Source: a virus
Direction: 5' to 3' (one strand)
DNA length: 64,000 nt
Virus record (IMG/VR): IMGVR_UViG_3300027749_000093
Span: 1 to 64,000 of that record
Positions 1-61,035 of the stretch are shown here, piece after piece. A program made the position numbers and the translations under genes. How positions within the stretch are numbered: the stretch's first letter is position 1; each line of letters starts with the position of its first letter. The notes beneath the pieces are model-generated. The model was not told the DNA's origin. It worked only from the letters and a program-made list of their open reading frames with translations, and ran no database searches.

Positions 1-160
1 TGTATTGATAATTGCAACGATGTTGCATTCTGTGAGTATTATATACGCATACAATTATTTTAAATCGTATTTTATTAAGCGTAGCCAAAAATACGATTTA
101 AAATAATTGTATGCGTATATAATACTCACAGAATGCAACATCGTTGCAATTATCAATACA
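1..160. repeat. Perfect 73-bp inverted repeat (1-73 / 88-160) with 14-nt loop at the window start
   Basis: Base i pairs with base 161-i for i=1..73; loop attaagcgtagcca. Confidence 0.97.
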
Positions 161-737
161 ATCTATCGTATTTATCAATAAACTGTTGTAGTATACCTCT
201 TTTCTCATTAAGCATACTCACCTTAGAATTAATCTTTTTAGGAGTACCTGACAATGTAATATCATCTAATTCAAATATCTCAACATTTAACTTAGGATTA
301 TAAAACCACCTATATTGTTCATAAATCTTGCAAGAAGGCAATTCTGCACCAATCTTTCTATTCATACGGATATTATATTTACCTACATTTAAACAATCAT
401 CATTATACCTTAAATTAAATAATATTTCACTTTCATAATAATCCATTTGTTTAGTGTTTGAACATGGTTGGATTAATTCTATATAACCAATTTTTATCTT
501 TGGATTATCAATTAAATATTTAATTAAATTTTTATACATTCCATATTCACTATATTTTAACCCATGTTTATAATATTCAAATGATTTCTTTATACATAAT
601 TCATGTTCAAACAATCTTCTATTAAGTAATTCTGTTTTACCTATATAATATTTATTACCAAATGTTATCTTATATATACCTCCCATATTCCTTTGCCATT
701 GCATATTTTTAGGATGCAGTATATAAATATTACTCAT
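153..737 (-). CDS. GIY-YIG family endonuclease
   Basis: GIYKI...YYIGKT..L..RL.EH motif; later LNV. Confidence 0.8.
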   Translation of the reverse strand: MSNIYILHPKNMQWQRNMGGIYKITFGNKYYIGKTELLNRRLFEHELCIKKSFEYYKHGLKYSEYGMYKNLIKYLIDNPKIKIGYIELIQPCSNTKQMDYYESEILFNLRYNDDCLNVGKYNIRMNRKIGAELPSCKIYEQYRWFYNPKLNVEIFELDDITLSGTPKKINSKVSMLNEKRGILQQFIDKYDRLY

Positions 738-1189
738 ATTAGATTGTCTTTACTAGAAAAATCAGGTATATTAAAAATAAACTCTATCCAACCATTTTCT
801 GCATTAACCCATTTTTTAGTTACTCTTACATCTGCTATTTCTTTATCTTCTACCATTAGGGCATCAAAAAAACCTTTAGCTAAATTATCCCAATCAGGTC
901 TTGATTGATGTAATCTTAAATGCATTAATTCTTTTTTCTTTTTTCTCCATGATTTAGGAACATTTATATAAAATATTAAATGTCCTCCTTGTTCAGGTGG
1001 TGTAAACTTTTTAGATTTAGCTATTGCAGAAAGAGAAAGTTTATAATTATTATATCTTTCTATTCTAAGTAATCTTTTTAATCCTGATGGTCGCAAATGT
1101 TGTCTTGGTATTCTAAAGAATATTCTATCATTTTGAGTAGTTCTTATATTTGTTTGTGGATTAATATTAAATACTACCTTTTTTAACAT
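734..1189 (-). CDS. rusA: RusA-like Holliday junction resolvase
   Basis: RPDWDNLAKGFFDAL..EDKEI...V.KKW catalytic pattern. Confidence 0.85.
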   Translation of the reverse strand: MLKKVVFNINPQTNIRTTQNDRIFFRIPRQHLRPSGLKRLLRIERYNNYKLSLSAIAKSKKFTPPEQGGHLIFYINVPKSWRKKKKELMHLRLHQSRPDWDNLAKGFFDALMVEDKEIADVRVTKKWVNAENGWIEFIFNIPDFSSKDNLI

Positions 1190-1332
1190 TTTATTTTTTT
1201 TCTATTTCGTTCTTTAATTGCTCTTTCTAGTAATATTGAAATTACTTGTGATTCACTTCTTTTTTCTTTTTCTTGGATTAGTTTTATTTCATCCTTTATT
1301 AATTGTGTAACTGTTCCGCTTACCTGTGGCAT
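1183..1332 (-). CDS. Small ribbon-helix-helix-like DNA-binding protein (49 aa, not in ORF track)
   Basis: Hand translation MPQVSGTVTQLIKDEIKLIQEKEKRSESQVISILLERAIKE; RS.SQ.I..LL pattern; atactt repeats just upstream (1333-1370). Confidence 0.65.
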   Translation of the reverse strand: MPQVSGTVTQLIKDEIKLIQEKEKRSESQVISILLERAIKERNRKKIKC

Positions 1333-1428
1333 ATATACTTATTTTACTCAAATATACTTAAAATACTTATAATAAAAAAATCCCACTTTTTAGGGTGAGA
1401 TTTAATAATTTTTAAATTAAATTGTTAA

Positions 1429-2172
1429 TTACCTGTTAAAATCCATATGTCTATGTTCAAAATCAGCTAAAAACTCTCTAGCTTTTCTTATTTTTTGGTA
1501 TATGTTTTCAATCATTTCATCATCCCTATCAACTCGAAACTTTAATATTCTTTCATTAATTGGAATGTCTTCAAATATCATGTCATTATCTAATTCTAAT
1601 GAAGCTAATTTATATTCAGGAGATTCGTCTGATACAACATTCATCCTATATAATAACTTTCTTTTTTCGTCTTCTACGAGGCTATTAGGGGCTGATGTGA
1701 GGCAGTAGCATATCCAAGCAGTATTAGCACCCGATAAAGCCATATAGCCGTTTAATTGGGCAACATAATGCGGATTTAAGGGCTTGGCTACATTAGATAG
1801 GAAAGTCTCTAGATTCCAAGATGTTTTAATGTCTATAATCTCTGTTGCTGTATGGATTGTTTTACCTCTAAAAATATCAGGAGTGCCGCTAATGTAATCG
1901 TTTTGTAGCCAATCTTCGTTCTTCTGTAAAAATTCTTTCTCGTATTTACTTAGCAAGTCTATTGAATCTTCTTCAGCTAACTTTCCTTTCTCTAAATACT
2001 TAGATTGTATATCTTTTTTCCTGCCATACTTATGTTCAATGTAGACAGATACTAGGTATGATTTAGTTGTTTCACTAAGTTCACCGGCATCCTTTGCAGC
2101 CTTAGATTGTGGCTGAGTAAGCAAAGAACCTAATGCAGAACATCTGATTTTGATTCCGTTCCAATTTGTCAT
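1429..2172 (-). CDS. YqaJ/lambda-exonuclease-like recombination nuclease
   Basis: IRCS, G...E, GTPD, IDIKTSW, Y..QL.GYM motifs. Confidence 0.85.
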   Translation of the reverse strand: MTNWNGIKIRCSALGSLLTQPQSKAAKDAGELSETTKSYLVSVYIEHKYGRKKDIQSKYLEKGKLAEEDSIDLLSKYEKEFLQKNEDWLQNDYISGTPDIFRGKTIHTATEIIDIKTSWNLETFLSNVAKPLNPHYVAQLNGYMALSGANTAWICYCLTSAPNSLVEDEKRKLLYRMNVVSDESPEYKLASLELDNDMIFEDIPINERILKFRVDRDDEMIENIYQKIRKAREFLADFEHRHMDFNR

Positions 2173-2831
2173 GGTTTAATTTGTTTTAGTTTTAATTCGT
2201 ATTGTTTCTTAGTTAGTTCATTAGTTGCAGCAATTATCTTATAAGACTTTAATTCATCTTCTGTTTGGCAATCGCTAATCAATGATATTAGTCTTGATAA
2301 CTTTCTATCAGGTGATTCGTTTTCTATCTGCATTTCAGGCAATTCACCTTCATCAAATCCCCTAGATAACGACCTACCAAATAAGTCTCCTATCTGTTTA
2401 AAGCAAGCCTTCTTACAAGATGCTATAACCTTTCCTGTAACCAATGGCATAAGTGCTATGCTTGATGCTACTTCTGAAGCAAGTCCTTCGTAGAAGATAT
2501 GATTGATGCCATCCAAATGTCTGATTATTAATGATGCTTTTACTGTGATACAAACCTTACCTGATTTGTCAGATATAATTATTGGTTTGTCTATTTTGTC
2601 AATCCCCCAATAACCATATATTTTTTTGGCAATAGCTTCAAGCAATTCAATCTTAATAGTCTTATAGGTATCGCCTTCTTTTATTAAAGACTTATATTCT
2701 TTTACCCATTCTTTAGGTGGTTGTGTATTTTGAATGATTGAGTTAGCAAGTTTATAATCTTCTAAAGAAACAGCATCTGATATCGATTTAAATATATCAT
2801 TTCCATAATTTAATTGTTCATCTATATGCAT
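2169..2831 (-). CDS. Putative single-strand annealing protein (Rad52/Sak-like)
   Basis: Adjacent to exonuclease; KKAC...G.LFGR.L pattern. Confidence 0.55.
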   Translation of the reverse strand: MHIDEQLNYGNDIFKSISDAVSLEDYKLANSIIQNTQPPKEWVKEYKSLIKEGDTYKTIKIELLEAIAKKIYGYWGIDKIDKPIIISDKSGKVCITVKASLIIRHLDGINHIFYEGLASEVASSIALMPLVTGKVIASCKKACFKQIGDLFGRSLSRGFDEGELPEMQIENESPDRKLSRLISLISDCQTEDELKSYKIIAATNELTKKQYELKLKQIKP

Positions 2832-3022
2832 TCTAATAATTTTTGAAATTTAATAATAGATTCGTAAATTTTTTTAGACTCTAGTCTTAGCTTATCATCC
2901 ATATAAACTATTTCATTTTCTGAAACAAGTGCATCCCAAAAGACACACATTGTATCTACTCTGTCTGCAACAATTGCTAACTCTTTTTCTATTTCTGATG
3001 TTAAATTAAAAAAACTGTCCAT
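2822..3022 (-). CDS. Hypothetical protein
   Basis: ORF coupled to downstream gene. Confidence 0.55.
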   Translation of the reverse strand: MDSFFNLTSEIEKELAIVADRVDTMCVFWDALVSENEIVYMDDKLRLESKKIYESIIKFQKLLECI

Positions 3023-3201
3023 GGTTTATTTTTTTTTAGTTAGTGAATAAATTATTAATGGTGATAATACAATGCAGCAAAGGATAAAATACATTATCCT
3101 AAAAACGCAAATAACTTTTTTCATAATAATCATTTAGGCAAATAGACCTAAAATAAATTACAATAAAAAAAGTTAAATACTATTTTAACAAAACATTATG
3201 A

Positions 3202-3525
3202 CTATGCCATATCGCTATCTTCTTCGTCTTCGTCAAGCATCGCTGTGCCTTTGGCTTTTGCATCCATAAGCATTTTAGTTTTCTTAGATGCCCTATCAAT
3301 CATTTGAAGTTTTTTAGCCTTGTCAATTCTATTTTTTAAATCTTCTTTACCCCTAGACTCCCATTGCTTCTGCATACCCATTTCAAAGTCACGTTTATCA
3401 CTAGCCGCTTTTTCAGGAGTCGAAGTCTTACCTGTTTCAGTCTTAACCATAGTTTTTTTCGCCTTAACTTTCTCAATCTTTTGTTGTAAAGTTTCATCTG
3501 CTTCGTTATCCATTAACATTCCCAT
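3202..3525 (-). CDS. Small K/M/D-rich hypothetical protein
   Basis: ORF; N-terminus resembles that of 3834-4037 (L..KIEK.K.K.M.K). Confidence 0.65.
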   Translation of the reverse strand: MGMLMDNEADETLQQKIEKVKAKKTMVKTETGKTSTPEKAASDKRDFEMGMQKQWESRGKEDLKNRIDKAKKLQMIDRASKKTKMLMDAKAKGTAMLDEDEEDSDMA

Positions 3526-3545
3526 AATTATTTTTTTTTAATATT

Positions 3546-3830
3546 TTAAGATTTTTTATGTGCATTTGCAAAGTTACGAGCAGCTACAATACTTCCGAAT
3601 CCCCATGCTTTTAAAGCTAATGCTTTCCTTGTTGGTTCACCATTAGGTTTTTTCATAGCACCTACCATACCTGAAAATCTAGCTGCAAAAGAAACTCTAC
3701 GAGGATTAACTCCGCTTTTAACAGGTGCTTTTAAATGACCTCCATGAGAATGATTATATGAATCACGACCTTTTTGGTTTAAGCCACCTGAAGGATTTTT
3801 TCCTTCTTTTCTTTCCCAAGCTTCCGACAT
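3546..3830 (-). CDS. Small basic conserved phage protein (DUF6321-like)
   Basis: AW.RKEGKNPSGGLN.KGR.SYN...RR.SF.AR..GM...GEPTR.ALALKAW. Confidence 0.75.
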   Translation of the reverse strand: MSEAWERKEGKNPSGGLNQKGRDSYNHSHGGHLKAPVKSGVNPRRVSFAARFSGMVGAMKKPNGEPTRKALALKAWGFGSIVAARNFANAHKKS

Positions 3831-3833
3831 AAA

Positions 3834-4037
3834 TTACATTTTTTCTTGTGCCTTAATCTTTTTTTCTTGTTTCAACATTTCAGCAGTTGGCTCTTTACCA
3901 CTTCCTTTATTGGCACGAATATTATCCCATAATCCACGAGGAGAACTTGAACCATCTGCCCTCTTCATCATATGCTTACTCTTAGCCTTCTCAATTTTTT
4001 TATGTAAACTTTCATGCATCATCATTGCCATAAACAA
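3834..4037 (-). CDS. Small basic phage protein
   Basis: GLWDNIRA.KGSGK.PT..ML motif seen in aquatic phages. Confidence 0.7.
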   Translation of the reverse strand: MFMAMMMHESLHKKIEKAKSKHMMKRADGSSSPRGLWDNIRANKGSGKEPTAEMLKQEKKIKAQEKM

Positions 4038-4179
4038 ATTTTAATTCCTAAAGATACAACAAATCCATAAATCACAAAAAACCTTTTAATTCGCAATTCG
4101 CAAATCACAAAACCACCCTGTAAAAAATAAAAAAAACATACCAAAATAAAATCCCAATCCTATTTAACAAAAATAACAG

Positions 4180-4515
4180 CTAGGTGTCTTGGGGGTGTCA
4201 CGCAATAAACGTGGGGGGCGGCAGCCCAAAGGGGAACTAGGAATTGGGCGATAGGGCTATGCCTAGATTTCGATTTCACTTTTGGTTTTGGGGTGGGGTG
4301 GGGTGCTTAGACAGATGGGATAGGCGATAGGTTATATATATGCGATTCTAAGTAGGCTTCCTTGCCATATCTTTTTAAAGTAGGGTGATTGTATGCCTTG
4401 TGTTTTTATAGGGGTGATTTGGGGTGGTTTTATGGTTTGTCTGTTTGTACGGGGATTTGGTGTTATTAGGGTAGTTATGGGTAGGTGGGAGGTAATGTGG
4501 GTGTTTATGTAGAGT
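4180..4515. other. Non-coding G/T-rich skewed segment between divergent gene blocks
   Basis: Many G runs (ggggtggggtggggtg at 4290-4305) in an AT-rich genome; A/C-rich segment to its left. Confidence 0.8.
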
Positions 4516-4530
4516 TGTAACTAAAATATG

Positions 4531-4587
4531 TTTGTTTCGTAACGTAACGATATGTATATTTGTGTCTTAACGTAACGTAACGATATG
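4531..4587 (+). promoter_or_regulatory. Bacteroidota housekeeping-sigma promoter flanked by direct repeats
   Basis: TTTG 4531-4534, TATATTTG 4555-4562 (20-nt spacer); cgtaacgtaacgatatg at 4538 and 4571. Confidence 0.75.
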
Positions 4588-4932
4588 AAAAAATGTATAA
4601 CTTGTAAAACCAACTTTGAAGAAAAGCATAATAAAGCTATTTTTTGTTCAAATAAATGCCGTCAAAAAAATCACAGGGAGAAGATTAAAGTTTTAATAAA
4701 TTCTATTAATGTAAAAAAAACAATAAAAACACCTGAAATAAAAATTAAAAAAACAAATGATGAATATGATTTTTCAAAAATTGATTTTTTTATTATAGAA
4801 GATTTTACAAAATATCCAAAATCAGATAAGCCTTCAGAATTCTTAAAAGCTAAAGAATGGAATTTATTAAAATTAAAATCAGATGAAGAAATAAGACAAA
4901 AATGGCTTAAATATAAAGGAATTGTAAAATGA
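4585..4932 (+). CDS. Zinc-finger protein, probable DNA-binding regulator
   Basis: C..C...F......A.FCS.KCRQK..R N-terminus. Confidence 0.7.
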   Translation: MKKCITCKTNFEEKHNKAIFCSNKCRQKNHREKIKVLINSINVKKTIKTPEIKIKKTNDEYDFSKIDFFIIEDFTKYPKSDKPSEFLKAKEWNLLKLKSDEEIRQKWLKYKGIVK

Positions 4933-5300
4933 AAAAACTAAATGACTTAAATGTTATTCCAAAAGGATTAAGTCTTCAAGAACAAAAATATTGGCTAGAA
5001 CATAATAAAAAACAACATATGGATTTACAATTAATTTTAGAAACAGCAAAAGATTGTTTAGCATTAAAACCCGATGGATTTGATGGAAACCTTGATGGGT
5101 ACGATAAAGCTATTTTAGGTTTAACAGACAACGGACAATTAGTTTATAGTAAAGAAATTATGGTTAAACTTGCAATACAATCAGCACTTCCTGAAATATT
5201 AACCGAAGAAGATGCATGGGAATTTCTTGAATTTAATACGTTTTCCGCCTATGTTGGAGAACAAACACCAATTTATGTTAATACTTTTAAAACTATTTAA
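4929..5300 (+). CDS. Conserved hypothetical phage protein
   Basis: DG.D.AILG....LVYS...EEDA.EFLEFN...AYVGE.TP pattern. Confidence 0.75.
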   Translation: MKKLNDLNVIPKGLSLQEQKYWLEHNKKQHMDLQLILETAKDCLALKPDGFDGNLDGYDKAILGLTDNGQLVYSKEIMVKLAIQSALPEILTEEDAWEFLEFNTFSAYVGEQTPIYVNTFKTI

Positions 5301-5302
5301 TT

Positions 5303-5452
5303 ATGTATATGAATTGGTTAAAGCAGATTTTTTGCCATCATAGATGGAGATGTATATATAAGTATGGAACTTTTGCTGATTGGAGATGCCGTAAATGTGG
5401 TAAAATAAAGAGAGGATTAGCACCTATATATAATATAGAAGTTGATAAATAG
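5303..5452 (+). CDS. Small Cys/His protein (49 aa, not in ORF track)
   Basis: Hand translation ...FCHHRW...CRKCGK. Confidence 0.6.
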   Translation: MYMNWLKQIFCHHRWRCIYKYGTFADWRCRKCGKIKRGLAPIYNIEVDK

Positions 5453-5832
5453 TTTGATTTAGGTAGTATTACTACTTAAATAATGTTGGATATGTCCGAT
5501 ATATGGCGCAAATAAGCCGTTAATGTCGGAAATAACGTACTTGTCAATTTTACACCTTATAAGGTATATACTTTACGATTTAGTATTTTTTATACCATAA
5601 AAGGTACGTTTTGGCTGAGTTTAAAAATCTATACTCAGCCAAAACTATAGTAATAAAGCTATTTTTGATTAATAAATCTTATCACTTTATTGTCGCAAAT
5701 ATGTCACTTATTTGCGAAAAATTTTGACAAATAACTATGTAAATATGTTACGAGATTTGCATGAATTTTACATTGATTGGCGGTGATTTACTTCGGAGAT
5801 TTGCACAATAACATAAATTTTGTTAGTGTGCA
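5453..5832. repeat. Non-coding array of different short palindromes (array 1)
   Basis: gtagta-t-tactac 5463-5475; accttataaggt; 13-bp arms 5608-5645; 9-bp arms 5693-5717; 10/11-bp arms 5803-5831. Confidence 0.8.
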
Positions 5833-6075
5833 TTAAATTGTCCTGCGATAACCTTGTTCCCAAAGTAACTTTGCCATTTCTTTTGCGTGTCCTTCTACTT
5901 TGATTTCACTCCAACGTGGATTTTGGATATGTGTAATTTCATGAATTAAGACTTCAAGATGCCTTTCGCCATTAATTCTAGAGTCTATATGTATAACTCC
6001 TGATTCGCAATAAGCTAACCCATGCGCTTTTTGTTTGCCTAATTTTCTGTGTATTATTTCTTTTACTGTATTCAA
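5833..6075 (-). CDS. Small HExxH metallopeptidase-like protein
   Basis: HGLA....IHID.R......EVLIHEITH. Confidence 0.65.
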   Translation of the reverse strand: MNTVKEIIHRKLGKQKAHGLAYCESGVIHIDSRINGERHLEVLIHEITHIQNPRWSEIKVEGHAKEMAKLLWEQGYRRTI

Positions 6076-6257
6076 GACTTTAGTATTGCAAGGTCAGGTC
6101 TATCAATTTCTTGTGGTTCAAATATCTTATTATTTCTAGCTTCCTGAGATATTTTTTTCCATTGTTCGTATACCAAAAAAGCATCATTCATTTCTTTTAC
6201 AGCATATTGCACTTGTTCTATCTTGGTTAGTTTATAGAATTTTTTTGGAGGAATCAT
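6072..6257 (-). CDS. Hypothetical protein
   Basis: Overlapping operon arrangement. Confidence 0.55.
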   Translation of the reverse strand: MIPPKKFYKLTKIEQVQYAVKEMNDAFLVYEQWKKISQEARNNKIFEPQEIDRPDLAILKS

Positions 6258-6432
6258 AATTTCTAATTGCTGATTTTAAATATAATGCTTTGTCTAAAGT
6301 TTCTTCGTATGCGTGTTGTAACCAATCTATCATGTTTAAATCTTCCCTATCTACTGTGCATCCGTATTTTTTAAGTCCTAATGATTCTCTATCTCTCATG
6401 TCTTTAATGACTGCATCTAAAGTTTTACTCAT
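6232..6432 (-). CDS. Small helical phage protein, possibly MazG-like nucleotide pyrophosphohydrolase
   Basis: R...G.KKYG.T.DR.DL...DWLQHAYEE.LD.ALY. Confidence 0.6.
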   Translation of the reverse strand: MSKTLDAVIKDMRDRESLGLKKYGCTVDREDLNMIDWLQHAYEETLDKALYLKSAIRNYDSSKKIL

Positions 6433-6441
6433 AGTACTAAA

Positions 6442-7113
6442 TTATTTATTATTTCTTATAGATTCAGGTATTTCATTAATATTTCTAGTAAAATAAAAAC
6501 CTTTATACCCATTTGTATTAGTACATAAACATTTATCTACATATTGAACTGATAATCCGGAATAATTAGCTGCATCTATTGGGAATGTAGCTTCATATAA
6601 TATTTTATCTAAATTATAAACATAAACTATTCCCCTATATTTAGGATTATTAACTCCTTTATATATTATTTTATTTCTTTCGCTAGCACATTTTTTAGCA
6701 TATTCAGATATAATTCTTCCTTTGTTTTTAAATGACATTATTTTTTTTGTTTCTTCAGTATGTTTTTTCCCTTTCCAAATGCCTAATTTATTTCTTTCTG
6801 ATAATTTTGGATTTTTTAATCCTAAAACACCATCTCCACCATCTGTTAAATTAACGAGAGTACCTCCATCTGAAATTTTTTTATGAATTGCTATAAATTC
6901 AATTTCTTTTTTCTTTGCAAAATCATAAGAAACATTTTCAAATAATATTTCTACTTCTATTTGTGTGCTATTATAAATATTTACCCAATGTCTATTTCTT
7001 GTTTTGTTGTGACTAGAATAAGCCCTTTCATAATTTGAAGTATTTTTATTGCTTATTCCAATATAAAATGGTTCATTTTTATCTAATCTAATATGACGAT
7101 AAACATATGCCAT
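6442..7113 (-). CDS. Free-standing homing endonuclease (GIY-YIG-like with NUMOD3)
   Basis: YVYRH...FYIG, L.NLTDGGDG, GKKHTEETKK.MS. Confidence 0.8.
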   Translation of the reverse strand: MAYVYRHIRLDKNEPFYIGISNKNTSNYERAYSSHNKTRNRHWVNIYNSTQIEVEILFENVSYDFAKKKEIEFIAIHKKISDGGTLVNLTDGGDGVLGLKNPKLSERNKLGIWKGKKHTEETKKIMSFKNKGRIISEYAKKCASERNKIIYKGVNNPKYRGIVYVYNLDKILYEATFPIDAANYSGLSVQYVDKCLCTNTNGYKGFYFTRNINEIPESIRNNK

Positions 7114-8114
7114 TATAAAATTTTTCCGTTAAAAATACGTTTATTTCTAAATTCAAAATCTTCTCCATTATCATCTAAATCGACAATACCAAAACCATGA
7201 TTCCATTTGTTTAAAGGCATATATGCAGGATGTAACTCACTCATACAACCTAAACTCCAAGTAGTAACCATTTTTCCTGATAGTGTTGGTTCAGTATGTT
7301 CTGAAGTCTGATGATTATGCCCTTGTATACAAGATACTTTTGCTTTTAGAAACAATCCCCTAGCAGGATTTACAGGCGCAGTAATACCTCCTACATACTC
7401 ATGCCCATGAATTGCCCAAAGATTATTTAATTTCATTGGTCGTTTATCACCTATAATTTCTATTCCTTTTGCCCTAGCTTTAATAATATTTTCAAAAGTA
7501 AATTCTTCTATTCCTACTAATTCGCTAGCTTTTTCTTGCAAAAAATGTTCGTATCGTTCTTCGTGGTTACCTATTTTAAAATAAATTTTACAACCTAATT
7601 CTTTTTCAAATACATCAAATAATGCACGAAAAGTATCTAATTCTAATGCAAAATTTCTTTTTTTAGGGTCTTTAATAAATCTTGAAAGCCTATGACAATC
7701 AATAGTATCACCCATTAATAATAATGCATCAGGCTTTTCTTTTTTACAAAAATCTAATGCAGCAGTTAATGAAGGAATATTATGATAAGGTACATGAATG
7801 TCTGAAAATACTGCTATTTTTTTATGCCCTTTAATTGTATATGGCTCAAATTCTGTTTCGTCTGATGCAGGTATGTTATAAGGATTTTTAGGTCTTTCAG
7901 GATACGGATGAGTAACTATTGCATTACCTTGTTTACCTGTTTTACCTTCAATAGCCCTTAATCTACATCTAGCATCCTCTACATCCCTAAATAATAAATT
8001 ATTTTCTGCGTATACTATTCTAGCCAACTTTAATGTCGGCATTTCCATTCCGTATTTTTCCCTATATTGTCTTGCTATTGTTACCTTTGAATGGATTACA
8101 TTATTCTTAGACAT
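7113..8114 (-). CDS. Calcineurin-like metallophosphoesterase
   Basis: SDIH, GD..D, GNHE, HGH, GH.H motifs. Confidence 0.9.
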   Translation of the reverse strand: MSKNNVIHSKVTIARQYREKYGMEMPTLKLARIVYAENNLLFRDVEDARCRLRAIEGKTGKQGNAIVTHPYPERPKNPYNIPASDETEFEPYTIKGHKKIAVFSDIHVPYHNIPSLTAALDFCKKEKPDALLLMGDTIDCHRLSRFIKDPKKRNFALELDTFRALFDVFEKELGCKIYFKIGNHEERYEHFLQEKASELVGIEEFTFENIIKARAKGIEIIGDKRPMKLNNLWAIHGHEYVGGITAPVNPARGLFLKAKVSCIQGHNHQTSEHTEPTLSGKMVTTWSLGCMSELHPAYMPLNKWNHGFGIVDLDDNGEDFEFRNKRIFNGKIL

Positions 8115-8256
8115 GAGATGGTTTTATTAACAAAGATAACCAATAATCGTCAATATAGTTAATAAAATGACGATAAAAAGAAAAACCTAACACTTTTATA
8201 TTAGGTCAAAAGAATTTGTTTAGTAAATCTATCTTTTATTATCTACCAAATATACA

Positions 8257-8669: not shown

Positions 8670-8972
8670 TTTCGGATTATTTCCAAGTTGATTAGGTTTA
8701 TATATCAGATTTATGTCTGAATTAGTATCTTATCTTGTTTAAATACCTAAAGTTTATTTGATTTAAACAAAAAACACTTTTTAAAATTAGTGTCAAATGT
8801 TTAGTTTTTTATTAGTATCAAAACTTGATATTTATTAATGTTTTGATACTAATATTTTTTTCGTTTAATTAATTGCAATTAACTACGTTTTAAGTAGTAG
8901 ATAGTAAATAAGTTTAATTCATAAATTTGTTATTTTTAACAATTAAAAGAAACAGGGGTAAATTTGTCCCCT
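8670..8972. repeat. Non-coding array of different short palindromes (array 2)
   Basis: 10-bp arms 8735-8770; 15-bp arms 8810-8854; ttaattgcaattaa 8869-8882; agggg-N9-cccct 8954-8972. Confidence 0.8.
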
Positions 8973-9228
8973 AGTTGATTAGTTTATCTATATTAACATC
9001 ATGTTCCTCTAATAACTCTCCAATCCTTTTATAAACCATATCTAATGCATCATATCTATTAATGCTATCAGATTCCATTGCCCATTCCAATGTTTTCTTA
9101 CTATTATGCACTAACTCCCATAACACTAAAGCCATATCAGTTGCCTTTATGCATCTTGTATGTGCCATTGAATCCTCTGCATCATCCAAATTAAAATGTA
9201 ATTCTGCTTTCATAATTATTCTGTCCAT
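8971..9228 (-). CDS. Conserved hypothetical phage protein
   Basis: MKA.L.FNL.D.ED..AH..C.KA.DMA..LWE. Confidence 0.7.
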   Translation of the reverse strand: MDRIIMKAELHFNLDDAEDSMAHTRCIKATDMALVLWELVHNSKKTLEWAMESDSINRYDALDMVYKRIGELLEEHDVNIDKLIN

Positions 9229-11116: not shown

Positions 11117-11388
11117 TATAAAATACTTAATTCATCAATAATAGCATCCCTTTGTGCGCCACTTAAAAATGGTAAAATATCAATACTTTGACCAAATACA
11201 ATAACTTCAACACTTGTTAAATTAACTTCAATTAATTCATTCTCATCTATCTCATGTATGCCATGAAATTCAATCTTTTGTGGTGGATAAATAGCATAAG
11301 TTCCATCATATCCAATTACAAAATCAATAGACGGGGTAATACTAATAATTTCAGTTTCATGTTTAATTTCTTTCCTAAATGCACTCAT
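11116..11388 (-). CDS. Hypothetical protein
   Basis: ORF in operon. Confidence 0.6.
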   Translation of the reverse strand: MSAFRKEIKHETEIISITPSIDFVIGYDGTYAIYPPQKIEFHGIHEIDENELIEVNLTSVEVIVFGQSIDILPFLSGAQRDAIIDELSIL

Positions 11389-11525
11389 TTTATTTTATTT
11401 TTATTGGTTTGTTTAATTGGTAATCCCACATCCAATGAGTAATAATTCCATTACTATTAACCTCCATATATCCAAGTAACTTTAGCAATAAATATATGTT
11501 ATCTCTGTTCTCATTCATTGTTACA

Positions 11526-11611
11526 CAAAGATAAGATAAAACATTCTTAATCCACAACTTTTTTTAATAAATAAATAAATTTGTTTATTAATTTATTTGT
11601 ATTTATGTTTG
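11526..11611. promoter_or_regulatory. Back-to-back Bacteroidota promoters
   Basis: Minus: TATCTTTG (11533-11526) with TTG at 11557-11555; plus: TTTG 11580-11583 and TATGTTTG 11604-11611. Confidence 0.75.
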
Positions 11612-11631
11612 CGACACACAAAAATTAAAAA

Positions 11632-11820
11632 ATGAAAAAAGAAAAAAACCTTCCTGAAGAAATTAAAACTGCATTAGATGGTAGAACACAAAGATGGTTA
11701 TCATTAAATGCCAAGATTCCTGAATCTGAATTATCTAGAAAAATGAAAGGTAAGAATAATTTTATAGATTCTGAATTACAAAGAATAAATGAATTATTGA
11801 AAACAAATTTTACTAATTAG
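11632..11820 (+). CDS. Cro/XRE-like HTH protein
   Basis: GRTQRWLS....I.ESELSRKM.G...F...EL..I. Confidence 0.8.
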   Translation: MKKEKNLPEEIKTALDGRTQRWLSLNAKIPESELSRKMKGKNNFIDSELQRINELLKTNFTN

Positions 11821-11834
11821 TTAATTAATATCAA

Positions 11835-12221
11835 ATGAGTATAACATCAAAAGATAAAGTTGCATTAAAAATCAAACTTTATAATAAAACAAATGGATGT
11901 TGTGCATATTGTGGATGCGAATTACATAACGGAAATTTTCAAATAGACCATATTATTCCAAAAAGACGTGGCAGTAATAGTCAATACCATAGTAATTATA
12001 ACAAAGAAAAAGGTAGTGATAATGAAAATAATTTAATTGCTTGTTGCGGTTCTTGTAATTCTTCTAAATCAGATTTAGACTTAGAAGATTTTAGAGAAAG
12101 AGTTTTAGATAGAATTAAAAGACTTAATGATTATTCAACGGAATATAATATTGCTAAGAGATTTGGATTAATTAAAGAATTAGATATTCCTATTATATTT
12201 TATTTTGAAAAATTAACTTAA
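11835..12221 (+). CDS. HNH endonuclease
   Basis: CAYCG, IDHIIP, NL..CC..CN..K. Confidence 0.9.
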   Translation: MSITSKDKVALKIKLYNKTNGCCAYCGCELHNGNFQIDHIIPKRRGSNSQYHSNYNKEKGSDNENNLIACCGSCNSSKSDLDLEDFRERVLDRIKRLNDYSTEYNIAKRFGLIKELDIPIIFYFEKLT

Positions 12222-36483: not shown

Positions 36484-38517
36484 ATGTTTAAAAAAATTGA
36501 TGGCGCATCAGTAATTGAATTGCATGGGTTAACCATGAATATTCCGTCATTAGGATATGGTATATCTGAAAGTGGGGATGTAAAATCTGTAGAGGTATTT
36601 AAAAGAAGTAATGTAGATTCAGAACAATATTGGGAAGTAGATGCATTACCTGACAATTGGGAAGATTTAAGATATCAAGAAAAGCAAAAACAAGAGATAG
36701 ATGAAGACTATTTTGACCCAATCTTAGAAGAAATAAGGGCTAAATGGTGGCATAGAAGAATATACGGGGTATGGTTTTACAATAATGGGATGGAAATATA
36801 CCTTACAGGACTGCATTGGTTTTACCTTACTTGTTGGCAGCTAGATACAGGATTACCTTTATTTAGGATGATTGACTTAGAGGTATTTTATATGTGGATG
36901 TATTGTGTTGAAGACCCTGATTGTTTTGGATTGCTTTATACCTGTAAAAGGCGGAACGGTAAGACGGCAATTTCATCTTGTATGATTTACGAATGTATTT
37001 CTAGGAGTACAAGGGCTTTAGGAGGTATGCAATCCAAGACATTAGAAGATGCAGCAGAAATATTTGACTACCATATTGTACCTGCATTCCAACAATTACC
37101 TGATTTTTTTATACCTGTATACGATAAATCAAGGGGTAGTACACCTAAAAAAGAATTGCTATTTCAACTTACATCTGTTAAGGGTAGAGATTCATCGTCT
37201 AACTTTAGGGGAAAACAATTACGTTCTGTAATAGACTATAAAGAAAGCAATCCTAAAGCATACGATGGTAAAAGACTTAAAAGATATGTAGGTGATGAAA
37301 GGGGTAAGGTAGAGTTTGATGTAATACAAGGACATATTATGATAAGGAAGTGTCTTGTAGACATCCAAAGAAGAATTATAGGTAAGATGCTTATTACTAC
37401 TACAGTAGAGGAATTGGGTATTAAATATAGATATGATGAGTTGTGGAAGTGGAGTGACCAAAGAAAAAGACAAGAAGACGGAAGAACAAAAAGTGGGCTA
37501 TATAAATTATTTATTCCTGCAGATAGGTCAGGAGAGTTTAATGTATATGGTGAACCACACATACTAAAAAATCGGAAGTCCATACTAGAAGAGAGAGAAA
37601 GACTAAGAGACAGCCCTAGAGATTTAATTGCAGAGATAAGAAAAGAACCACTAACAGAAGAAGAAGCATTTAAAGTATCTAACAACGAATGCCATTTTAA
37701 TCAGCTACTATTAGAAGATGCATATTCAAATATTACTGCAATAGAAAAAGAAGTAATGTGTTATGGGAATCTAATATGGAAGGACAACAAAATGATGTCT
37801 GATGTAGAATGGAAGGATGGTGACAGGGATTCTAAATTTAAAGTACCTAAATCATTCTTAACACATTGGCTAGAAACTAGAAAATTTGATGATATAATAG
37901 AAAAAAGAGGTAACATATTTATACCTAAAAATTATATCAGATTCACGAGTGCTATTGACCCATTCGCAAATAACATTACAGTAGATTCTATAAATAGTAA
38001 GGCAGCAAGCTATGTATACAATAGACATGATAATAGTGTAATGTCTAAGACTTTTGATAAATCGTTCATATGGCAGTACCATGCAAGACCTAACACAACA
38101 TCCTTGCAGAATGAGGATATGATTAAACAATGTTTCTTTTTTGGATGCCAATTATTAATAGAAAATAACAGAGAGGGTGGTATAAGAAATGACTTCAAAA
38201 ACTTTGGTTGTGAAGCATTTATGATGAAGCTAGACCAATATCCTGACTATGGAATCCCATCATCAGAATCAAATAAATCACTAGGAGTAAACTTACTAGA
38301 ACAACACATAGAAAGGGAAGGAAGAGACAACAAAATATACTTTTCTGAATTAATATACGATTTGATACGTTTTAATGTAAACGAAACAGAGAAATCTAAT
38401 TTATCAATGGCAGCTATGTGGACACTTGTAGCATCTTATTATAAGCAATACAACATAAAAACAGATACAAAAGCTATTCAAGTAGGAGATTTCTTCAAAA
38501 AGAAAAAAATAGTATAA
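36484..38517 (+). CDS. terL: Terminase large subunit
   Basis: YLTGLHWFYL; KRRNGKT Walker A; YVGDERGK Walker B; IDPF and IENN nuclease motifs; ATG at 36484. Confidence 0.9.
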   Translation: MFKKIDGASVIELHGLTMNIPSLGYGISESGDVKSVEVFKRSNVDSEQYWEVDALPDNWEDLRYQEKQKQEIDEDYFDPILEEIRAKWWHRRIYGVWFYNNGMEIYLTGLHWFYLTCWQLDTGLPLFRMIDLEVFYMWMYCVEDPDCFGLLYTCKRRNGKTAISSCMIYECISRSTRALGGMQSKTLEDAAEIFDYHIVPAFQQLPDFFIPVYDKSRGSTPKKELLFQLTSVKGRDSSSNFRGKQLRSVIDYKESNPKAYDGKRLKRYVGDERGKVEFDVIQGHIMIRKCLVDIQRRIIGKMLITTTVEELGIKYRYDELWKWSDQRKRQEDGRTKSGLYKLFIPADRSGEFNVYGEPHILKNRKSILEERERLRDSPRDLIAEIRKEPLTEEEAFKVSNNECHFNQLLLEDAYSNITAIEKEVMCYGNLIWKDNKMMSDVEWKDGDRDSKFKVPKSFLTHWLETRKFDDIIEKRGNIFIPKNYIRFTSAIDPFANNITVDSINSKAASYVYNRHDNSVMSKTFDKSFIWQYHARPNTTSLQNEDMIKQCFFFGCQLLIENNREGGIRNDFKNFGCEAFMMKLDQYPDYGIPSSESNKSLGVNLLEQHIEREGRDNKIYFSELIYDLIRFNVNETEKSNLSMAAMWTLVASYYKQYNIKTDTKAIQVGDFFKKKKIV

Positions 38518-39137
38518 TGTGGACAGATTTTTTTGACCGTATAGTAGTAATAAATCTACCCAAAAGAGTAGATAGACTAATAGAAGTATCAGAAGAACTT
38601 GACAATTACGGAATTGAATTTGACTTAGTTGATGGAATAGAACATGAAAAAGGCGCAGAAGGGTTAAGACAAACAGTAGAAAACATACTAAAAGATTCTA
38701 TACAAAAGAAGCACAAAGCAATATTGATATTTGAAGATGATTGTTTATTCGTAGAACCAAAGGATGTAGTAGATAGGACAATGGAAGATGCCATAAAAGA
38801 CTTACCTGAATATTGGCACATATTATACCTATCTGCACAAGCTACAGATGGTTTTAAAAGAAGACATTCATCCGCATTACTACAACTAGATAAGGCTTTT
38901 GCTACACATAGTTGGGCTATATCATTACAAGGTATGAAAGAAATCATTGCAGTAGGGCTAGAAGCCCCTATCGATAACTCAATAGTTGATAAGGTTCAAC
39001 CAATGCAAAGGTGCTTCATAACGTATCCAATTTTGACAACACAGAGGGCAGGGGTAAGTGACATAGGTAATACATTTATAGATTGGCATCCGTTTTTAAT
39101 TGGTAGGTATAATCAAAAATTAGCAGAATTAAAATGA
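38517..39137 (+). CDS. Glycosyltransferase family 25-like
   Basis: VINLP.R.DR, ILIFEDD, W.ILYL, THSW.IS, PID. Confidence 0.85.
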   Translation: MWTDFFDRIVVINLPKRVDRLIEVSEELDNYGIEFDLVDGIEHEKGAEGLRQTVENILKDSIQKKHKAILIFEDDCLFVEPKDVVDRTMEDAIKDLPEYWHILYLSAQATDGFKRRHSSALLQLDKAFATHSWAISLQGMKEIIAVGLEAPIDNSIVDKVQPMQRCFITYPILTTQRAGVSDIGNTFIDWHPFLIGRYNQKLAELK

Positions 39138-39832
39138 AAAAAATATCCATCGCAATTCCATCATGGAATAGGTACGAAATGACATTAGAATCCTTTGCAT
39201 CTGTAATGGATGACGAAAGAATAGAAGAAATAATTATTTCAGATGATGCAAGTGACATAGACTTGTATTATACACTAAAGGCAGCAGTAAGTTCTATGCC
39301 TAAAATAAAGATATTTAGAAACAAAGAAAACCAAGATTGCTATAAGAACAAATGTATAGCAGCAAGTTTGTGTAAGTCAGAATTTATAATTATATTTGAT
39401 AGCGATAACCAATTGAATAAAGCATATTTAGATGCGATTTATAATGAAGAATGGGATGAGAAAGTAATTTTTGCCCCTTCATTTGCTAAACCAACATTTG
39501 ATTATCGTGCATTTTCAGGTTTGACAATAACAAAAGAGAATATAAACGAATACTTTGATAAACCAATGTTTTCTACGATGCTTAACACAATGAATTTTTT
39601 TATAAATAGAAAACAATACTTAGACATTTGGGATGGCGAGGTAAACCCTGTGACAGCAGATAGTATTTATTTTAATTATTGTTGGTTAGCAACAGGAAAT
39701 AAAATAAAGGTAGTAGAAGGAATGGAATACAAACACTTAGTACATTCAGGAAGTCATTATGTAAATAATGTTTCTAGAACAGGAAACTTTTACGAAGAAG
39801 TAGAAACCAAAATAAGAAATATATGTCAATAG
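39134..39832 (+). CDS. Glycosyltransferase family 2 (GT-A)
   Basis: ISIAIP.WNR, EIIISDDAS, IFDSDN. Confidence 0.88.
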   Translation: MKKISIAIPSWNRYEMTLESFASVMDDERIEEIIISDDASDIDLYYTLKAAVSSMPKIKIFRNKENQDCYKNKCIAASLCKSEFIIIFDSDNQLNKAYLDAIYNEEWDEKVIFAPSFAKPTFDYRAFSGLTITKENINEYFDKPMFSTMLNTMNFFINRKQYLDIWDGEVNPVTADSIYFNYCWLATGNKIKVVEGMEYKHLVHSGSHYVNNVSRTGNFYEEVETKIRNICQ

Positions 39833-40575
39833 TTCAATCAAGAAGTTACGGGAGACTTGGGAACGTATTGTTTCAAATAGCTGCTGCTGCATCTTACGCA
39901 TTAAAACATAACCTAGAATTTTCTGTACCAAATGAAACTAATGATGAATATTGGAATCCATTATACTTACAACACTTACATAACGACAAATGGGTTAATG
40001 GCATAGAAGACATACTTGTAAACGAAAACGGATTTAGATTTCAAGACATTCCATTTGACGAATATTGGAGGGGAAAACAAATAGTCTTAAATGGTTATTG
40101 GCAGTCATGGAAGTACCTAGAAGAATACAGAAAGGAAATATTATACCTATTTGATTTAAGATGGAAACTAAAGCCACAGACTGCATCTATACATATTCGC
40201 AGAGGTGACTACTTACATTTAACCGATAAGCATCCACCATACACATTAGAATACCTAAACGATGCCATTAATTATTTAATAAACAATACAGGAGTAGAAA
40301 ACTTTGAAGTTTATTCAGATGATACAGCATGGTGTTTGGAAAATTTAAACCACATACCAAACATTAAAATAATTGAAACAGGAAACGAATTAGAAGATAT
40401 GGTTGAAGCATCATGTTGTGCATTTAACATTTGTTGTTCTAGTACATTCTCGTTTTGGATTGCTTGGCTTAACAGAAACCCAAATAAAATTTGTATATTC
40501 CCTAAACTATGGTTTGTGGAAGGATATCATCTAGATACAACCGATTTACTAGACCCATCATGGATAAAACTTTAA
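39823..40575 (+). CDS. Glycosyltransferase family 11 (alpha-1,2-fucosyltransferase-like)
   Basis: GRLGN.LFQ, GYWQS.KY, HIRRGDY, YSDD..WC, STFS.W.AWL. Confidence 0.92.
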   Translation: MSIVQSRSYGRLGNVLFQIAAAASYALKHNLEFSVPNETNDEYWNPLYLQHLHNDKWVNGIEDILVNENGFRFQDIPFDEYWRGKQIVLNGYWQSWKYLEEYRKEILYLFDLRWKLKPQTASIHIRRGDYLHLTDKHPPYTLEYLNDAINYLINNTGVENFEVYSDDTAWCLENLNHIPNIKIIETGNELEDMVEASCCAFNICCSSTFSFWIAWLNRNPNKICIFPKLWFVEGYHLDTTDLLDPSWIKL

Positions 40576-40577
40576 AT

Positions 40578-43547: not shown

Positions 43548-43550
43548 TTT

Positions 43551-49900: not shown

Positions 49901-49934
49901 TTAGTGGGTAGCCAAGTGCTGCCCACTAATTTTT
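49901..49934 (+). terminator. Intrinsic terminator after MCP
   Basis: ttagtgggtagc-caagt-gctgcccactaa followed by T5. Confidence 0.85.
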
Positions 49935-50876: not shown

Positions 50877-50909
50877 AATAGCAACCCTAAAAAAGTTGCT
50901 ATTTTTTTT
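50877..50909 (+). terminator. Intrinsic terminator
   Basis: aatagcaac-N9-gttgctatt followed by T-tract. Confidence 0.75.
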
Positions 50910-60948: not shown

Positions 60949-61000
60949 TTAAAGATTGTTTTCGTTTTTTTCGTGTGTTCATGGTTTATTGGTAGTGAAA

Positions 61001-61035
61001 ATGCCCCCGAAGTGGTTATCGGGGGTATCTTTTTT
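61001..61035. terminator. Probable bidirectional terminator between convergent units
   Basis: atgcccccga-N8-tcgggggtat with T-tract after and A-run before. Confidence 0.8.

Follow-up and report, generated by a model that had tools for sequence, protein, structure and literature searches.

Two modules of a gene-less palindrome cluster in a phage match control DNA in front of hipBST and PDC-S27 loci of Bacteroidota

Between two converging genes of the 64,000-nucleotide stretch of phage DNA analysed here (the window), 380 bases carry a series of palindromes, and the sequences of two adjoining modules among them match the cis-regulatory DNA of accessory immunity loci in Chitinophagaceae-type Bacteroidota. 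One module (5548-5606) resembles the operator pair in front of hipB-hipS-hipT operons and the other (5608-5645) resembles the site in front of PDC-S27, a gene that is only a candidate for anti-phage defence. The explanation that we favour, although with somewhat less than even confidence, is that the gap gathers protein-binding palindromes in a cluster without genes, copies of hipBST and PDC-S27 sites among them, and would act as a DNA decoy. It would then be neither a terminator nor one folded RNA. With these sites the phage may sequester host immune regulators or monitor them.

The gap, 5453-5832, is non-coding, and the open reading frames (ORFs) at 5303-5452 (+ strand) and 5833-6075 (- strand) converge on it, as the initial annotation of this DNA had described; all the dyads that it listed were found again. 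Every frame of a six-frame translation is interrupted, with no hidden ORF or pseudogene, and tblastx against 102 related loci gave no coding similarity at E<0.2. The source is an uncultured freshwater phage of Bacteroidota with a 72-kb genome, and homing endonuclease genes lie close by the gap, at 6442-7113. Elsewhere the genome is compact, with 14 gaps of 80 bp or more in a crude ORF call in which at least one gap is an artefact. Similarity searches with the DNA of the gap found nothing matching in cultured phages or plasmids, Tandem Repeats Finder returned no rows for it, and a search of the window for tRNA and tmRNA genes found none. The gap hairpins have no other copies in the phage genome and thus do not behave as a dispersed repeat of the REP, BIME or MITE kind.

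The 38-bp palindrome at 5608-5645 (GTTTTGGCTGAGTTTA-AAAATC-TATACTCAGCCAAAAC) has arms identical to those of host sites. Exact copies of both 13-nt arms are present in 15 genome contigs (14 from Bacteroidota), and a Pedobacter MAG shares 37 of the 38 nucleotides. In 22 of 27 host loci, a set that includes at least three pairs of duplicates or near-duplicates, a homologue of PDC-S27 starts beside the site and reads away from the array. These homologues are 50-100% identical to one host protein (L186) that is itself a full-length PADLOC match to PDC-S27 (E 5e-202), with ATPase_2 and DUF234/PD-(D/E)XK nuclease domains. The site family is limited to one locus in each of five host genomes and is therefore not a dispersed repeat. 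The phage site is of the PDC-S27 type in its length (exactly 38 bp in 28 of 30 distinct host sites), its half-site GTTTTGGCTGAGTWTA and its 6-bp A/T centre. A scan for TAnnTTTG predicted a -7 promoter box that points right (TATTTTTG, 5660-5667, + strand) and starts 14 nt past the site; TAnnTTT[GA] starts 10-14 nt past the gene-proximal site in 10 of 20 host S27 loci. By its sequence, 5608-5667 corresponds to one 38-bp site plus a predicted -7 box at the native distance, as they stand in front of PDC-S27. The host arrangement taken as the standard has two to four tandem sites about 54 bp apart, then a -7 box and the S27 gene within about 45 nt, whereas the phage has a single site and a predicted box with no gene. 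Elsewhere in the phage genome, TTTTGGCT and AGCCAAAA occur as isolated 8-mers only. The exact pattern of the site (hp4) had no match in IMG/VR, and its 16-nt half-site had 30, nearly all of them chance matches within coding sequence; L219 and L221 were the only ones with the look of a host-type array. Single-sequence patterns, which reach close relatives only, found no S27 relative in IMG/VR, and hence there is no sign of phages carrying the S27 gene. The palindrome array upstream of PDC-S27 is defined here; we found no published description of it, passages of PMC12988326 included.

Immediately to the left, 5548-5606 holds a candidate HipB-type operator pair, recognized by its similarity to host arrays. 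Box A (ACACCTTATAAGGTAT, core 5554-5565) and box B (ATACCATAAAAGGTAC, core 5594-5605) start 40 bp apart; box B is an exact TACC-N6-GGTA, and box A has C for T one base before ACC. Among the 401 Chitinophagaceae genomes searched, the pair matched one locus with 82% identity over 60 nt (L249) and another with 80% over 59 nt (L254), with E values of 1.1e-8 and 1.3e-5 per genome. Both matches lie immediately upstream of an operon with HTH_3, Couple_hipA and HipA_C domains. L246 comes from a further Chitinophagaceae genome that has a matching array. Host boxes have the form TACC-N6-GGTA, usually flanked by TA...TA, with two to four per array and a start-to-start phasing of 39-42 bp. In 30 fetched loci, a hipB homologue adjoins 16 of the 24 arrays with this phasing. 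Of 386 genomes, 62 had the two-box pattern and 28 had the reversed control pattern. In most host arrays the distance between the proximal box and the hipB start is between a few and about 20 nt, so that the host promoter falls within the array. The position of the Chitinophagaceae-type boxes suggests that HipB binds them, and the phage sequence at 5548-5606 reads as a HipB-type operator pair with the native 40-bp phasing of hipB-hipS-hipT fronts. In the phage, no HTH-HipS-HipT operon lies downstream of the pair, and tblastn searches of the phage genome and of 180 related loci found no HipB, HipS, HipT or S27 at E<1e-3.

The initial annotation proposed that the dyads are sites for host HTH repressors that control toxin-antitoxin or defence operons. 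Sequence supports this for these two of about nine modules, which host searches placed upstream of host genes; for hp1, hp2, hp5, hp6 and hp7 the host searches gave nothing above noise. The imperfect palindrome hp1 (5457-5481; ATTTAGGTAGTA-T-TACTACTTAAAT) has 12-nt arms that are 92% complementary and begins 5 nt past the stop of ORF 5303-5452. Its core, TAGTANTACTA, is present once in the window. Twelve of 102 related phage loci also have it; several of the twelve are redundant, and the number does not clearly exceed chance. Nor does the core qualify as a phage motif in many copies, since its 9 matches at no more than one mismatch compare with 5.3 expected. The hp2 region (5483-5540) consists of three diverged units of about 20 nt (TAATGTYGGAWAT...), each a potential small hairpin, that form direct repeats at 20 and 40 bp. 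On the other side, the perfect palindrome hp5 (5693-5717; TCGCAAATA-N7-TATTTGCGA, with a 9-nt arm) overlaps hp6, which came from the dyad search (5708-5734; TTATTTG-N13-CAAATAA), and the imperfect palindrome hp7 (5802-5832; TGCACAATAACA-N7-TGTTAGTGTGCA) abuts the stop of ORF 5833-6075. The host matches of hp2 (83% over 42 nt, upstream of a PF05635 four-helix-bundle gene in L257; E 2.5e-4 per genome), of hp6 (25 of 27 nt, upstream of an imuA/imuB-like pair in L260; E 3-9e-4 per genome) and of hp7 (29 of 33 nt in L258) are at noise level and are no better than matches inside ORFs. Separate host searches with 5453-5547 and 5688-5832 gave noise-level matches only, and 16 of the 21 weaker matches from the latter lay inside ORFs; five host genomes searched again in depth added nothing. 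The matches are concentrated in one family: 16 of the 401 Chitinophagaceae genomes gave any, compared with 3 of 401 genomes sampled across the phylum, these three being the seed genome itself and two borderline matches to the AT-rich middle of the gap.

Comparison with 1000 dinucleotide shuffles showed an excess of the longer palindromes only. Perfect dyads with arms of at least 5 are not enriched (11 against 10.1+-3.4), whereas there are seven with arms of at least 6 against 3.0 in shuffles (fraction 0.038) and two with arms of at least 9 against 0.09 (fraction 0.005), and the longest arm is 13 (fraction 0.001). Two short "chance-level" dyads, accttataaggt and tacc-N6-ggta, proved to be HipB-type boxes. 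The initial annotation also called the dyads unrelated and saw no shared repeat unit, and in both respects it was mistaken: some motifs are common to several dyads, and there are local duplications. The gap has six 13-mer repeats (up to two mismatches, 12-60 bp apart) against 0.58+-0.79, a number matched by 0 of 300 shuffles, at spacings of 20, 40, 40, 44, 44 and 59 bp. ATTTGC/GCAAAT occurs five times against 0.42 expected at the genome rate, and three of the five occurrences of TATTTGCG in 68 kb are inside the gap. Repeats D3 and D4 recur at 44 bp, and a stacked view shows three diverged 44-nt direct units on the + strand (5694-5825), each with a GATTTGCA/TATTTGCG box.

The gap is also predicted to fold strongly as RNA. 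The + strand reaches -105.3 kcal/mol against -68.6 in 100 shuffles (z -7.4) and the - strand -90.9 against -56.6, again in 100 shuffles (z -7.2). Among 1445 segments of 200 nt genome-wide, 5451-5650 ranks third from the bottom in GC-corrected energy (-4.5 sd), and only the two terminal palindromes of the contig are more structured. No terminal palindromes of at least 20 nt were found at the ends of the relatives' loci, few of which reach a contig end. The very low energy on both strands, together with the placement of hp1 5 nt after one stop and of hp7 against the other, and with the conservation of hp7 in relatives, where it follows gene blocks on their 3' side, would fit hairpins that work at the RNA level as 3'-end stabilizers, processing sites or factor-dependent terminators separating converging polymerases. 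We consider such a role quite improbable. No intrinsic-terminator-like site, with a GC stem and a T run, was found in 4500-7000, while classic ones occur at 49901-49929, at 50877-50903 and, in the other convergent gap, at about 60996-61030; in relatives, the convergent gap has one such hairpin. The host copies speak against RNA pairing as well. At least one arm mismatch is present in 18 of 30 distinct host 38-bp sites, several of them uncompensated, which together with the fixed length of 38 bp fits a protein site rather than a hairpin, and the ACC-N6-GGT boxes likewise keep their arms conserved and not their pairing partners. A single structured noncoding RNA, the alternative offered by the initial annotation, finds no support either, given these often non-complementary arms and the lack of any Rfam 15 covariance model match at gathering score in the whole window; the 15 Rfam hits in 5200-6100 are all weak and far under their gathering scores.

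A second predicted -7 box (TAGTTTTG, 5640-5647, - strand), found in the same TAnnTTTG scan, points left and overlaps the right arm of the 38-bp site. Host operators combined with promoters might let host immune regulators repress or release short phage transcripts, with the phage sensing the presence or activation of HipBST or S27. A rightward transcript would start near 5674, traverse hp5 to hp7 and continue antisense to ORF 5833-6075; a leftward one, starting near 5633, would run antisense to ORFs 5303-5452 and 4929-5300. Such a switch would agree with the back-to-back arrangement of the two boxes at 5647 (-) and 5660 (+), with the host distance of the rightward box from the 38-bp site, with the promoter within the HipB array in hosts, and with hp7, which could close an RNA of about 160 nt. 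A lake metatranscriptome run (X10) has 31% of the sampled words of 4496-8200 taken whole, and DNA runs (X5-X9) contain 33-96% of the words. Nevertheless, we regard the switch as improbable. Two TAnnTTTG boxes in 380 bases only mildly exceed the number expected at the genome rate (about 0.5), both lack a clear -33 TTG element, and there is no conserved RNA and no Rfam match. In the genome scan for TAnnTTTG, 21 of 100 matches are intergenic, many of them ahead of genes.

Related phages do not share the cluster. Among 180 related loci it is absent, with no DNA match besides hp7, and this absence implies that it is dispensable for the phage family. The only piece kept is hp7, at 90-94% in six relatives (L025, L026, L027, L029, L030 and L104), where it lies within a co-directional regulatory gap. 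None of the relatives of gene G (22 IMG/VR loci and 72 metagenome-contig loci) has this gap, and a hairpin-rich gap is not a trait of the family, as seen in 15 relatives whose gaps reach at best -2.0 sd. Since an essential cis site should be conserved, the lack of conservation of sequence and of structure density in the 15 near-full-length relatives and the 180 loci counts against a replication origin or packaging signal, in which iteron-like repeats at helical phasing would surround the AT-rich core at 5646-5692. The direct repeats at 20, 40 and 44 bp, the 83% A+T centre of the gap and the initiator-like protein and primase-helicase encoded by the phage itself would suit an origin. However, the initiator and primase genes lie at 12.2-14.7 kb, the cumulative GC-skew minimum is at 10-12 kb and another AT-rich repeat gap (11117-11834) lies beside that minimum, and we give an origin here very little credence.

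Another reading is that of inert leftovers: captured host accessory DNA (morons or recombination debris of defence islands) whose genes were deleted and whose promoter-operator pieces have not yet decayed. We think this unlikely on balance, but it deserves serious attention. Mosaicism is high in the early regions of this phage group, the gene order around G and M differs in almost every relative, the cluster is unique among the 180 loci, and the homing endonuclease genes at 6442-7113 point to frequent DNA traffic. A host MAG (L187) likewise has an S27 site array without the gene, and the phage S27 module still has its predicted promoter. On the other hand, there is no coding trace of hipB, hipS, hipT or S27 on either side of the gap, so that this reading needs at least four clean deletions, and IMG/VR has no close S27 relative. 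Capture in one piece would be possible if a host had the two loci side by side in divergent orientation, an arrangement that was absent from 25 S27-type and 18 HipB-array loci. The 38-bp site is still whole, with perfect 13-nt arms, the canonical length and 37 of 38 nt shared with a host copy; the 40-bp phasing of the boxes is likewise intact, and 380 useless bases would be unusual in a genome that is otherwise tightly packed.

The decoy explanation that we prefer would work as follows. The phage sites would bind host HipB, alone or with HipS and HipT, during infection, and the 38-bp site would capture whatever protein recognizes the S27 site. Because the phage DNA is amplified, these sites would titrate the proteins off their own loci, or they would hold the complexes on phage DNA. 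The remaining palindromes may be further sites for other partners. The decoy is favoured by the lack of hip and S27 gene remnants and by the lack of an XRE-type HTH or integrase among the 62 phage ORFs in a Pfam search. Several points weigh against it: with HipB titrated away, hipBST transcription should rise, a result of no obvious benefit to the phage; there is one S27 site against two to four in tandem in hosts; the retained promoter is needless for a pure decoy; a host counterpart was found for only 2 of about 9 modules; and related phages lack the cluster. A stronger version, a compact "operator sponge" in a virulent phage in which sites from several host immunity loci, amplified a hundred-fold, disarm or misdirect these systems through captured regulators or effector complexes, is possible but doubtful. 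Equally tentative is the corresponding reading of the modules, in which HipBST and PDC-S27 are the loci identified and the other palindromes stand for further loci.

If the sites work, DNA operator mimicry would join the anti-defence repertoire, the 38-bp site and its binder would give a first functional handle on PDC-S27, and such mimics could predict phage hosts and find regulators of immune loci from sequence alone. PDC-S27 is a widespread defence candidate, and its control site appears to be copied here in non-coding phage DNA. Even if the cluster is inert, it shows that virulent phages infecting Chitinophagaceae-like hosts take up regulatory DNA from defence islands.

The two modules resemble known arrays in different ways. 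The E. coli hipBA operators are TATCC-N8-GGATA. Like hipBA and hipBST arrays in general, the boxes are short palindromes with conserved arms, a variable centre and fixed phasing, and those of Chitinophagaceae front HTH-HipS-HipT operons. According to PMC10653801, HipB of Legionella binds its own operators, three inverted repeats at even spacing, and HipB-HipT and HipB-HipS-HipT complexes form on that DNA. The Chitinophagaceae box, TACC-N6-GGTA with a phasing of 40-41 bp, differs from both the Legionella and the E. coli motif, and the phage pair differs from host hipBST arrays in that no hip gene follows. The S27 module is like the host PDC-S27 array in its 38-bp length, half-site, A/T spacer and the offset of its predicted -7 box and unlike it in its single copy and missing gene.

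To our knowledge, the phage counter-defences known so far are proteins or RNAs. The Racr RNA anti-CRISPRs are solitary CRISPR repeats that bind Cas proteins, and phage PhiTE carries ToxI-like pseudo-antitoxin repeats that act as RNA on the toxin. As in those cases, non-coding phage DNA here seems to copy an element of an immune locus without its protein genes. Racr and the PhiTE repeats act as RNA, whereas the elements copied here would be DNA operators and promoters, known from their sequence. If the operator sponge is real, it would be the DNA-level counterpart of the RNA anti-CRISPRs and of antitoxin mimics. RNA anti-CRISPRs of the Racr kind are named in PMC13687109. In repressor titration, extra high-affinity decoy sites draw on a scarce regulator, and the strength of the effect depends on how many copies there are (PMC8599769, PMC3322331, 10.1101/2020.05.05.079665). 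The decoy sites described in these sources are in cellular genomes, plasmids and synthetic circuits, whereas the gap is phage DNA, and our literature search found no phage that uses host operators as titration decoys. The "stoperators" of cluster A mycobacteriophages are many copies of one motif, scattered through non-coding phage DNA and bound by the phage's own repressor. Like the stoperators, the gap would place regulator sites in non-coding phage DNA; unlike them, its sites appear to belong to host loci and are of several kinds.

The virus contig, of which the window covers the first 64 kb, is a single sequence of 72,427 bp with a tailed-phage gene set: terminase, portal and structural proteins, primase-helicase, SSB, a RecE-like exonuclease, RusA and NinG/Rap. 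By terminase, its nearest cultured phages are those of Flavobacterium and Cellulophaga, yet at only 27% identity; hundreds of related contigs are present in IMG/VR and freshwater metagenomes. A Pfam scan found no integrase or XRE-type repressor among 62 phage ORFs. Between the terminase and portal genes lies a gene block (38517-44354) for glycosyltransferase, methyltransferase and sugar epimerase functions.

The dyad-rich gap comprises the 380 bases (5453-5832) between convergent ORFs at 5303-5452 (+) and 5833-6075 (-), and holds no open frame or coding remnant. All of the dyads listed in the initial annotation are present, but only long dyads set the gap apart from shuffles by count. Perfect dyads with arms of at least 5 are not enriched (11 versus 10.1 ± 3.4 in shuffles), whereas those with arms of at least 9 are (2 versus 0.09; longest arm 13, fraction 0.001). 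Folding energy is decisive in separating the gap from shuffles (z -7.4 and -7.2 for the two strands), and 5451-5650 ranks third of 1445 genome windows in structure, with only the terminal palindromes ahead. The statement that there is no shared repeat unit has to be abandoned: direct repeats at short range are ten times as frequent as in shuffles (6 versus 0.58, reached in 0 of 300 shuffles), with spacings of 20, 40, 40, 44, 44 and 59, ATTTGC is present five times where 0.42 would be expected, and the right third of the gap consists of three diverged 44-nt units. This much structure could be read as RNA hairpins for mRNA ends, which we consider improbable. No terminator-like site was found in the gap, nor any tRNA or Rfam family even at E<=10; textbook GC-stem and T-run terminators occur elsewhere in the genome, including its other convergent gap, and a single hairpin of this type closes the equivalent convergent gap in relatives.

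The largest dyad is a 38-bp palindrome (5608-5645), here called the S27-type site. Scanning its 13-nt arms across genomes of 185,579 species gave 15 loci, 14 of them from Bacteroidota MAGs (Chitinophagaceae, Ferruginibacter, Sediminibacterium, Flavihumibacter, Hanamia, Pedobacter, Arcicella and Saprospirales). There two to four tandem copies of the palindrome lie directly before a gene of about 477 aa with an ATPase_2 domain; the L183 copy also has DUF234, at the Pfam cut-off. The product is a full-length match (E 5e-202) to the PADLOC candidate defence system PDC-S27. PDCs are proposed by "guilt by embedding", most await validation, and S27 is described as a fusion of an ATPase with a PD-(D/E)XK domain (PMC12988326), the superfamily to which PMC3424549 assigns DUF234. 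When the arm-scan loci are pooled with those of the Chitinophagaceae sample (27 host loci, some of them duplicates), an S27 homologue with 50-100% identity to the L186 protein reads away from the array in 22. The site is not a dispersed repeat, since its family was found at no other place in five such host genomes. A length of exactly 38 bp is shared by 28 of the 30 distinct host sites, the 13-nt arms are perfectly complementary in only 12, and a sub-lineage retains two unlike half-sites, GGCTGAAT with GGACAAGT. Such fixed length with imperfect arms and unlike halves is how a predicted protein-binding site with a set geometry behaves, rather than a hairpin. With 38 bp and perfect arms, the copy in the phage is canonical; it matches a Pedobacter MAG at 37/38 nt and locus L246 at 38/40.

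Bacteroidota -7 boxes (TAnnTTTG) are concentrated in intergenic DNA of the phage (21 of 100 matches, many before genes). In 10 of 20 host loci a TAnnTTT[GA] box starts 10-14 nt past the gene-proximal S27-type site, and the phage has a -7 box, TATTTTTG, at offset 14. In seven S27 loci (L181, L182, L186, L190, L191, L195 and L246) a 430-aa tyrosine integrase (Arm-DNA-bind_5, Phage_int_SAM_5 and Phage_integrase domains) ends just before the array, so over part of its range the S27 gene is carried by an integrative element. Bacteria, too, have arrays that lack the gene, as in the Bacteroidetes MAG locus L187, where an S27-type array (1501-1650) lies between DUF5009 and Por_Secre_tail genes without an S27 gene; a neighbour shared with L187 flanks an S27 gene in the sister loci L192 and L193.

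Of 401 Chitinophagaceae genomes searched with the entire gap (E<=0.001 per genome), 16 gave matches: 11 at the 38-bp site, two at 5548-5606 (1.1e-8 and 1.3e-5) and three at other parts (2.5e-4 to 8.8e-4). In a phylum-wide sample only 3 of 401 genomes matched, namely the seed genome and two borderline cases at the AT-rich middle of the gap. Both matches to 5548-5606 (82% over 60 nt and 80% over 59 nt) lie immediately upstream of HTH_3, Couple_hipA and HipA_C operons, which is the tripartite HipBST-type toxin-antitoxin system. What is conserved is two TACC-N6-GGTA boxes, 40-41 bp apart. Of 386 genomes, 62 contain the two-box pattern and 28 its reversed control, and in 24 of 30 fetched loci the boxes keep a 39-42 bp phasing. 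A hipB homologue starts beside the array in 16 of these 24, accompanied by hipS and/or hipT in 12 of the 16; most remaining two-box loci are chance matches inside coding DNA. A Legionella study describes HipB binding three evenly spaced inverted-repeat operators, on which HipB-HipT and HipB-HipS-HipT complexes assemble (PMC10653801), and it is therefore reasonable to regard the Chitinophagaceae arrays as putative HipB operators. The phage boxes A (5554-5565) and B (5594-5605), 40 bp apart, correspond to the dyads first listed as accttataaggt and tacc-N6-ggta. The junction of box and S27-like half-site, GGTAC|GTTTTGGCT, is found at 5602-5616 of the phage and also inside a host HipB array (locus L318, G620, about 1572-1595), and L295 has AGCCAAAAC 15 nt past its last HipB-type box; the motif may belong to a promoter.

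The comparisons show the two modules to be copies of cis-regulatory sites from two accessory, immunity-type host loci. The proposal that the gap collects operators of host toxin-antitoxin and defence loci is thus supported by sequence for HipBST and PDC-S27. For hp1 (5457-5481) and hp5 (5693-5717) the searches made gave no host match. The host counterparts of hp2 (5483-5540), hp6 (5708-5734) and hp7 (5802-5832) are suggestive but unproven: they are intergenic, upstream of a PF05635 gene, an imuA/imuB-like pair and a small gene beside a cNMP-binding regulator, respectively, but matches within ORFs, where 16 of 21 weaker host matches fall, have E-values at least as good.

Among 180 related loci only seven, on six contigs, match the gap, all through hp7 alone, and it was rejected as a family feature. 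In 15 near-full-length relatives no gap goes lower than -2.0 sd; the value in this phage is -4.5 sd. The absence of the cluster from the family and the less structured gaps of relatives argue against an origin of replication or a packaging site, and we consider an origin very improbable. The co-directional gap at 8687-8990 is homologous to the gap after hp7 in relatives L025-L030; it contains a GGGG...CCCC terminator-like hairpin, a AATTGTTAAAAATAACAATT dyad and a promoter-like stretch, and at 8810-8854 a hairpin with 15-nt arms precedes a T run on the + strand, with the genes reading the other way.

The three-gene island F-G-H (4585-5452) is inverted relative to relatives L010-L017, where gene G is co-directional with E and D, and the convergent gap may have arisen together with this inversion. 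Just upstream of ORF 4585-4932, a perfect -7 box TATATTTG flanked by two direct copies of TAACGTAACGATATG (4538-4584) looks like an operator-promoter arrangement. ORF 5833-6075, which overlaps ORF 6072-6257 by 4 nt in a different frame, contains the motif HEITH and weakly matches the metallopeptidase DUF6782 (E 0.0015); it may be a small, possibly split metallopeptidase. One of three free-standing homing endonuclease genes (6442-7113, 42792-43547 and 11835-12221; two GIY-YIG/NUMOD and one HNH) lies near the gap, two to three genes away, which fits a mosaic, often rearranged early region.

The contig ends in inverted terminal repeats of 4,495 bp, 100% identical (1-4495 and 67933-72427), and each extremity (1-160 and 72268-72427) is a 160-nt palindrome with 73-nt arms and a 14-nt loop. 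An assembler reading round a covalently closed hairpin end would yield such ends, but they could also be an assembly artefact. Gene M lies 3-8 kb from a contig end in relatives, which suggests fixed ends; the terminal stretches fetched from these relatives showed no terminal palindrome. The loop holds AGCCAAAA (83-90), the core of the S27-type half-site, probably by coincidence, given 8 occurrences of this 8-mer in 68 kb. On the + strand the repeat is G-rich at its inner end (4180-4495; GGGGTG and GGGGTGG runs) in a genome of 30% G+C, and its boundary (4495/4496) falls within the divergent promoter gap.

No HipB, HipS, HipT or S27 homologue was found in the phage genome or the 180 related loci, and no close relative of S27 in IMG/VR. 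Both modules are bare regulatory DNA in native geometry, with no trace of the genes controlled in bacteria. They abut (5606/5608). In 25 S27-type and 18 HipB-array loci the two kinds of site are never neighbours, which lends no support to their capture as one piece. A reading of the modules as inert captured DNA appears rather unlikely. The best explanation, which we hold tentatively, is a decoy: the two modules would bind the corresponding host proteins during infection, and phage replication would amplify the sites. This fits because the genes are absent, the sites intact and the genome tightly packed, and replication would multiply them. Against the decoy, titration of a repressor should raise expression of its locus, there is only one S27 site, PDC-S27 is an unvalidated candidate, and relatives do without the cluster. 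The predicted promoter retained in the S27 module also counts against it, and would instead suit a promoter switch under host regulators for short or antisense phage RNAs, a reading we find unlikely. The bolder version of the decoy reading, a multi-target operator sponge, is possible but doubtful.

In the literature searched we found no phage-borne operator decoys, and nothing of this kind on PDC-S27. To our knowledge the concepts that come nearest are RNA anti-CRISPRs and RNA mimics of antitoxins, both cases of nucleic-acid mimicry, together with generic transcription-factor decoy sites. The gap modules would be a form of such nucleic-acid mimicry.
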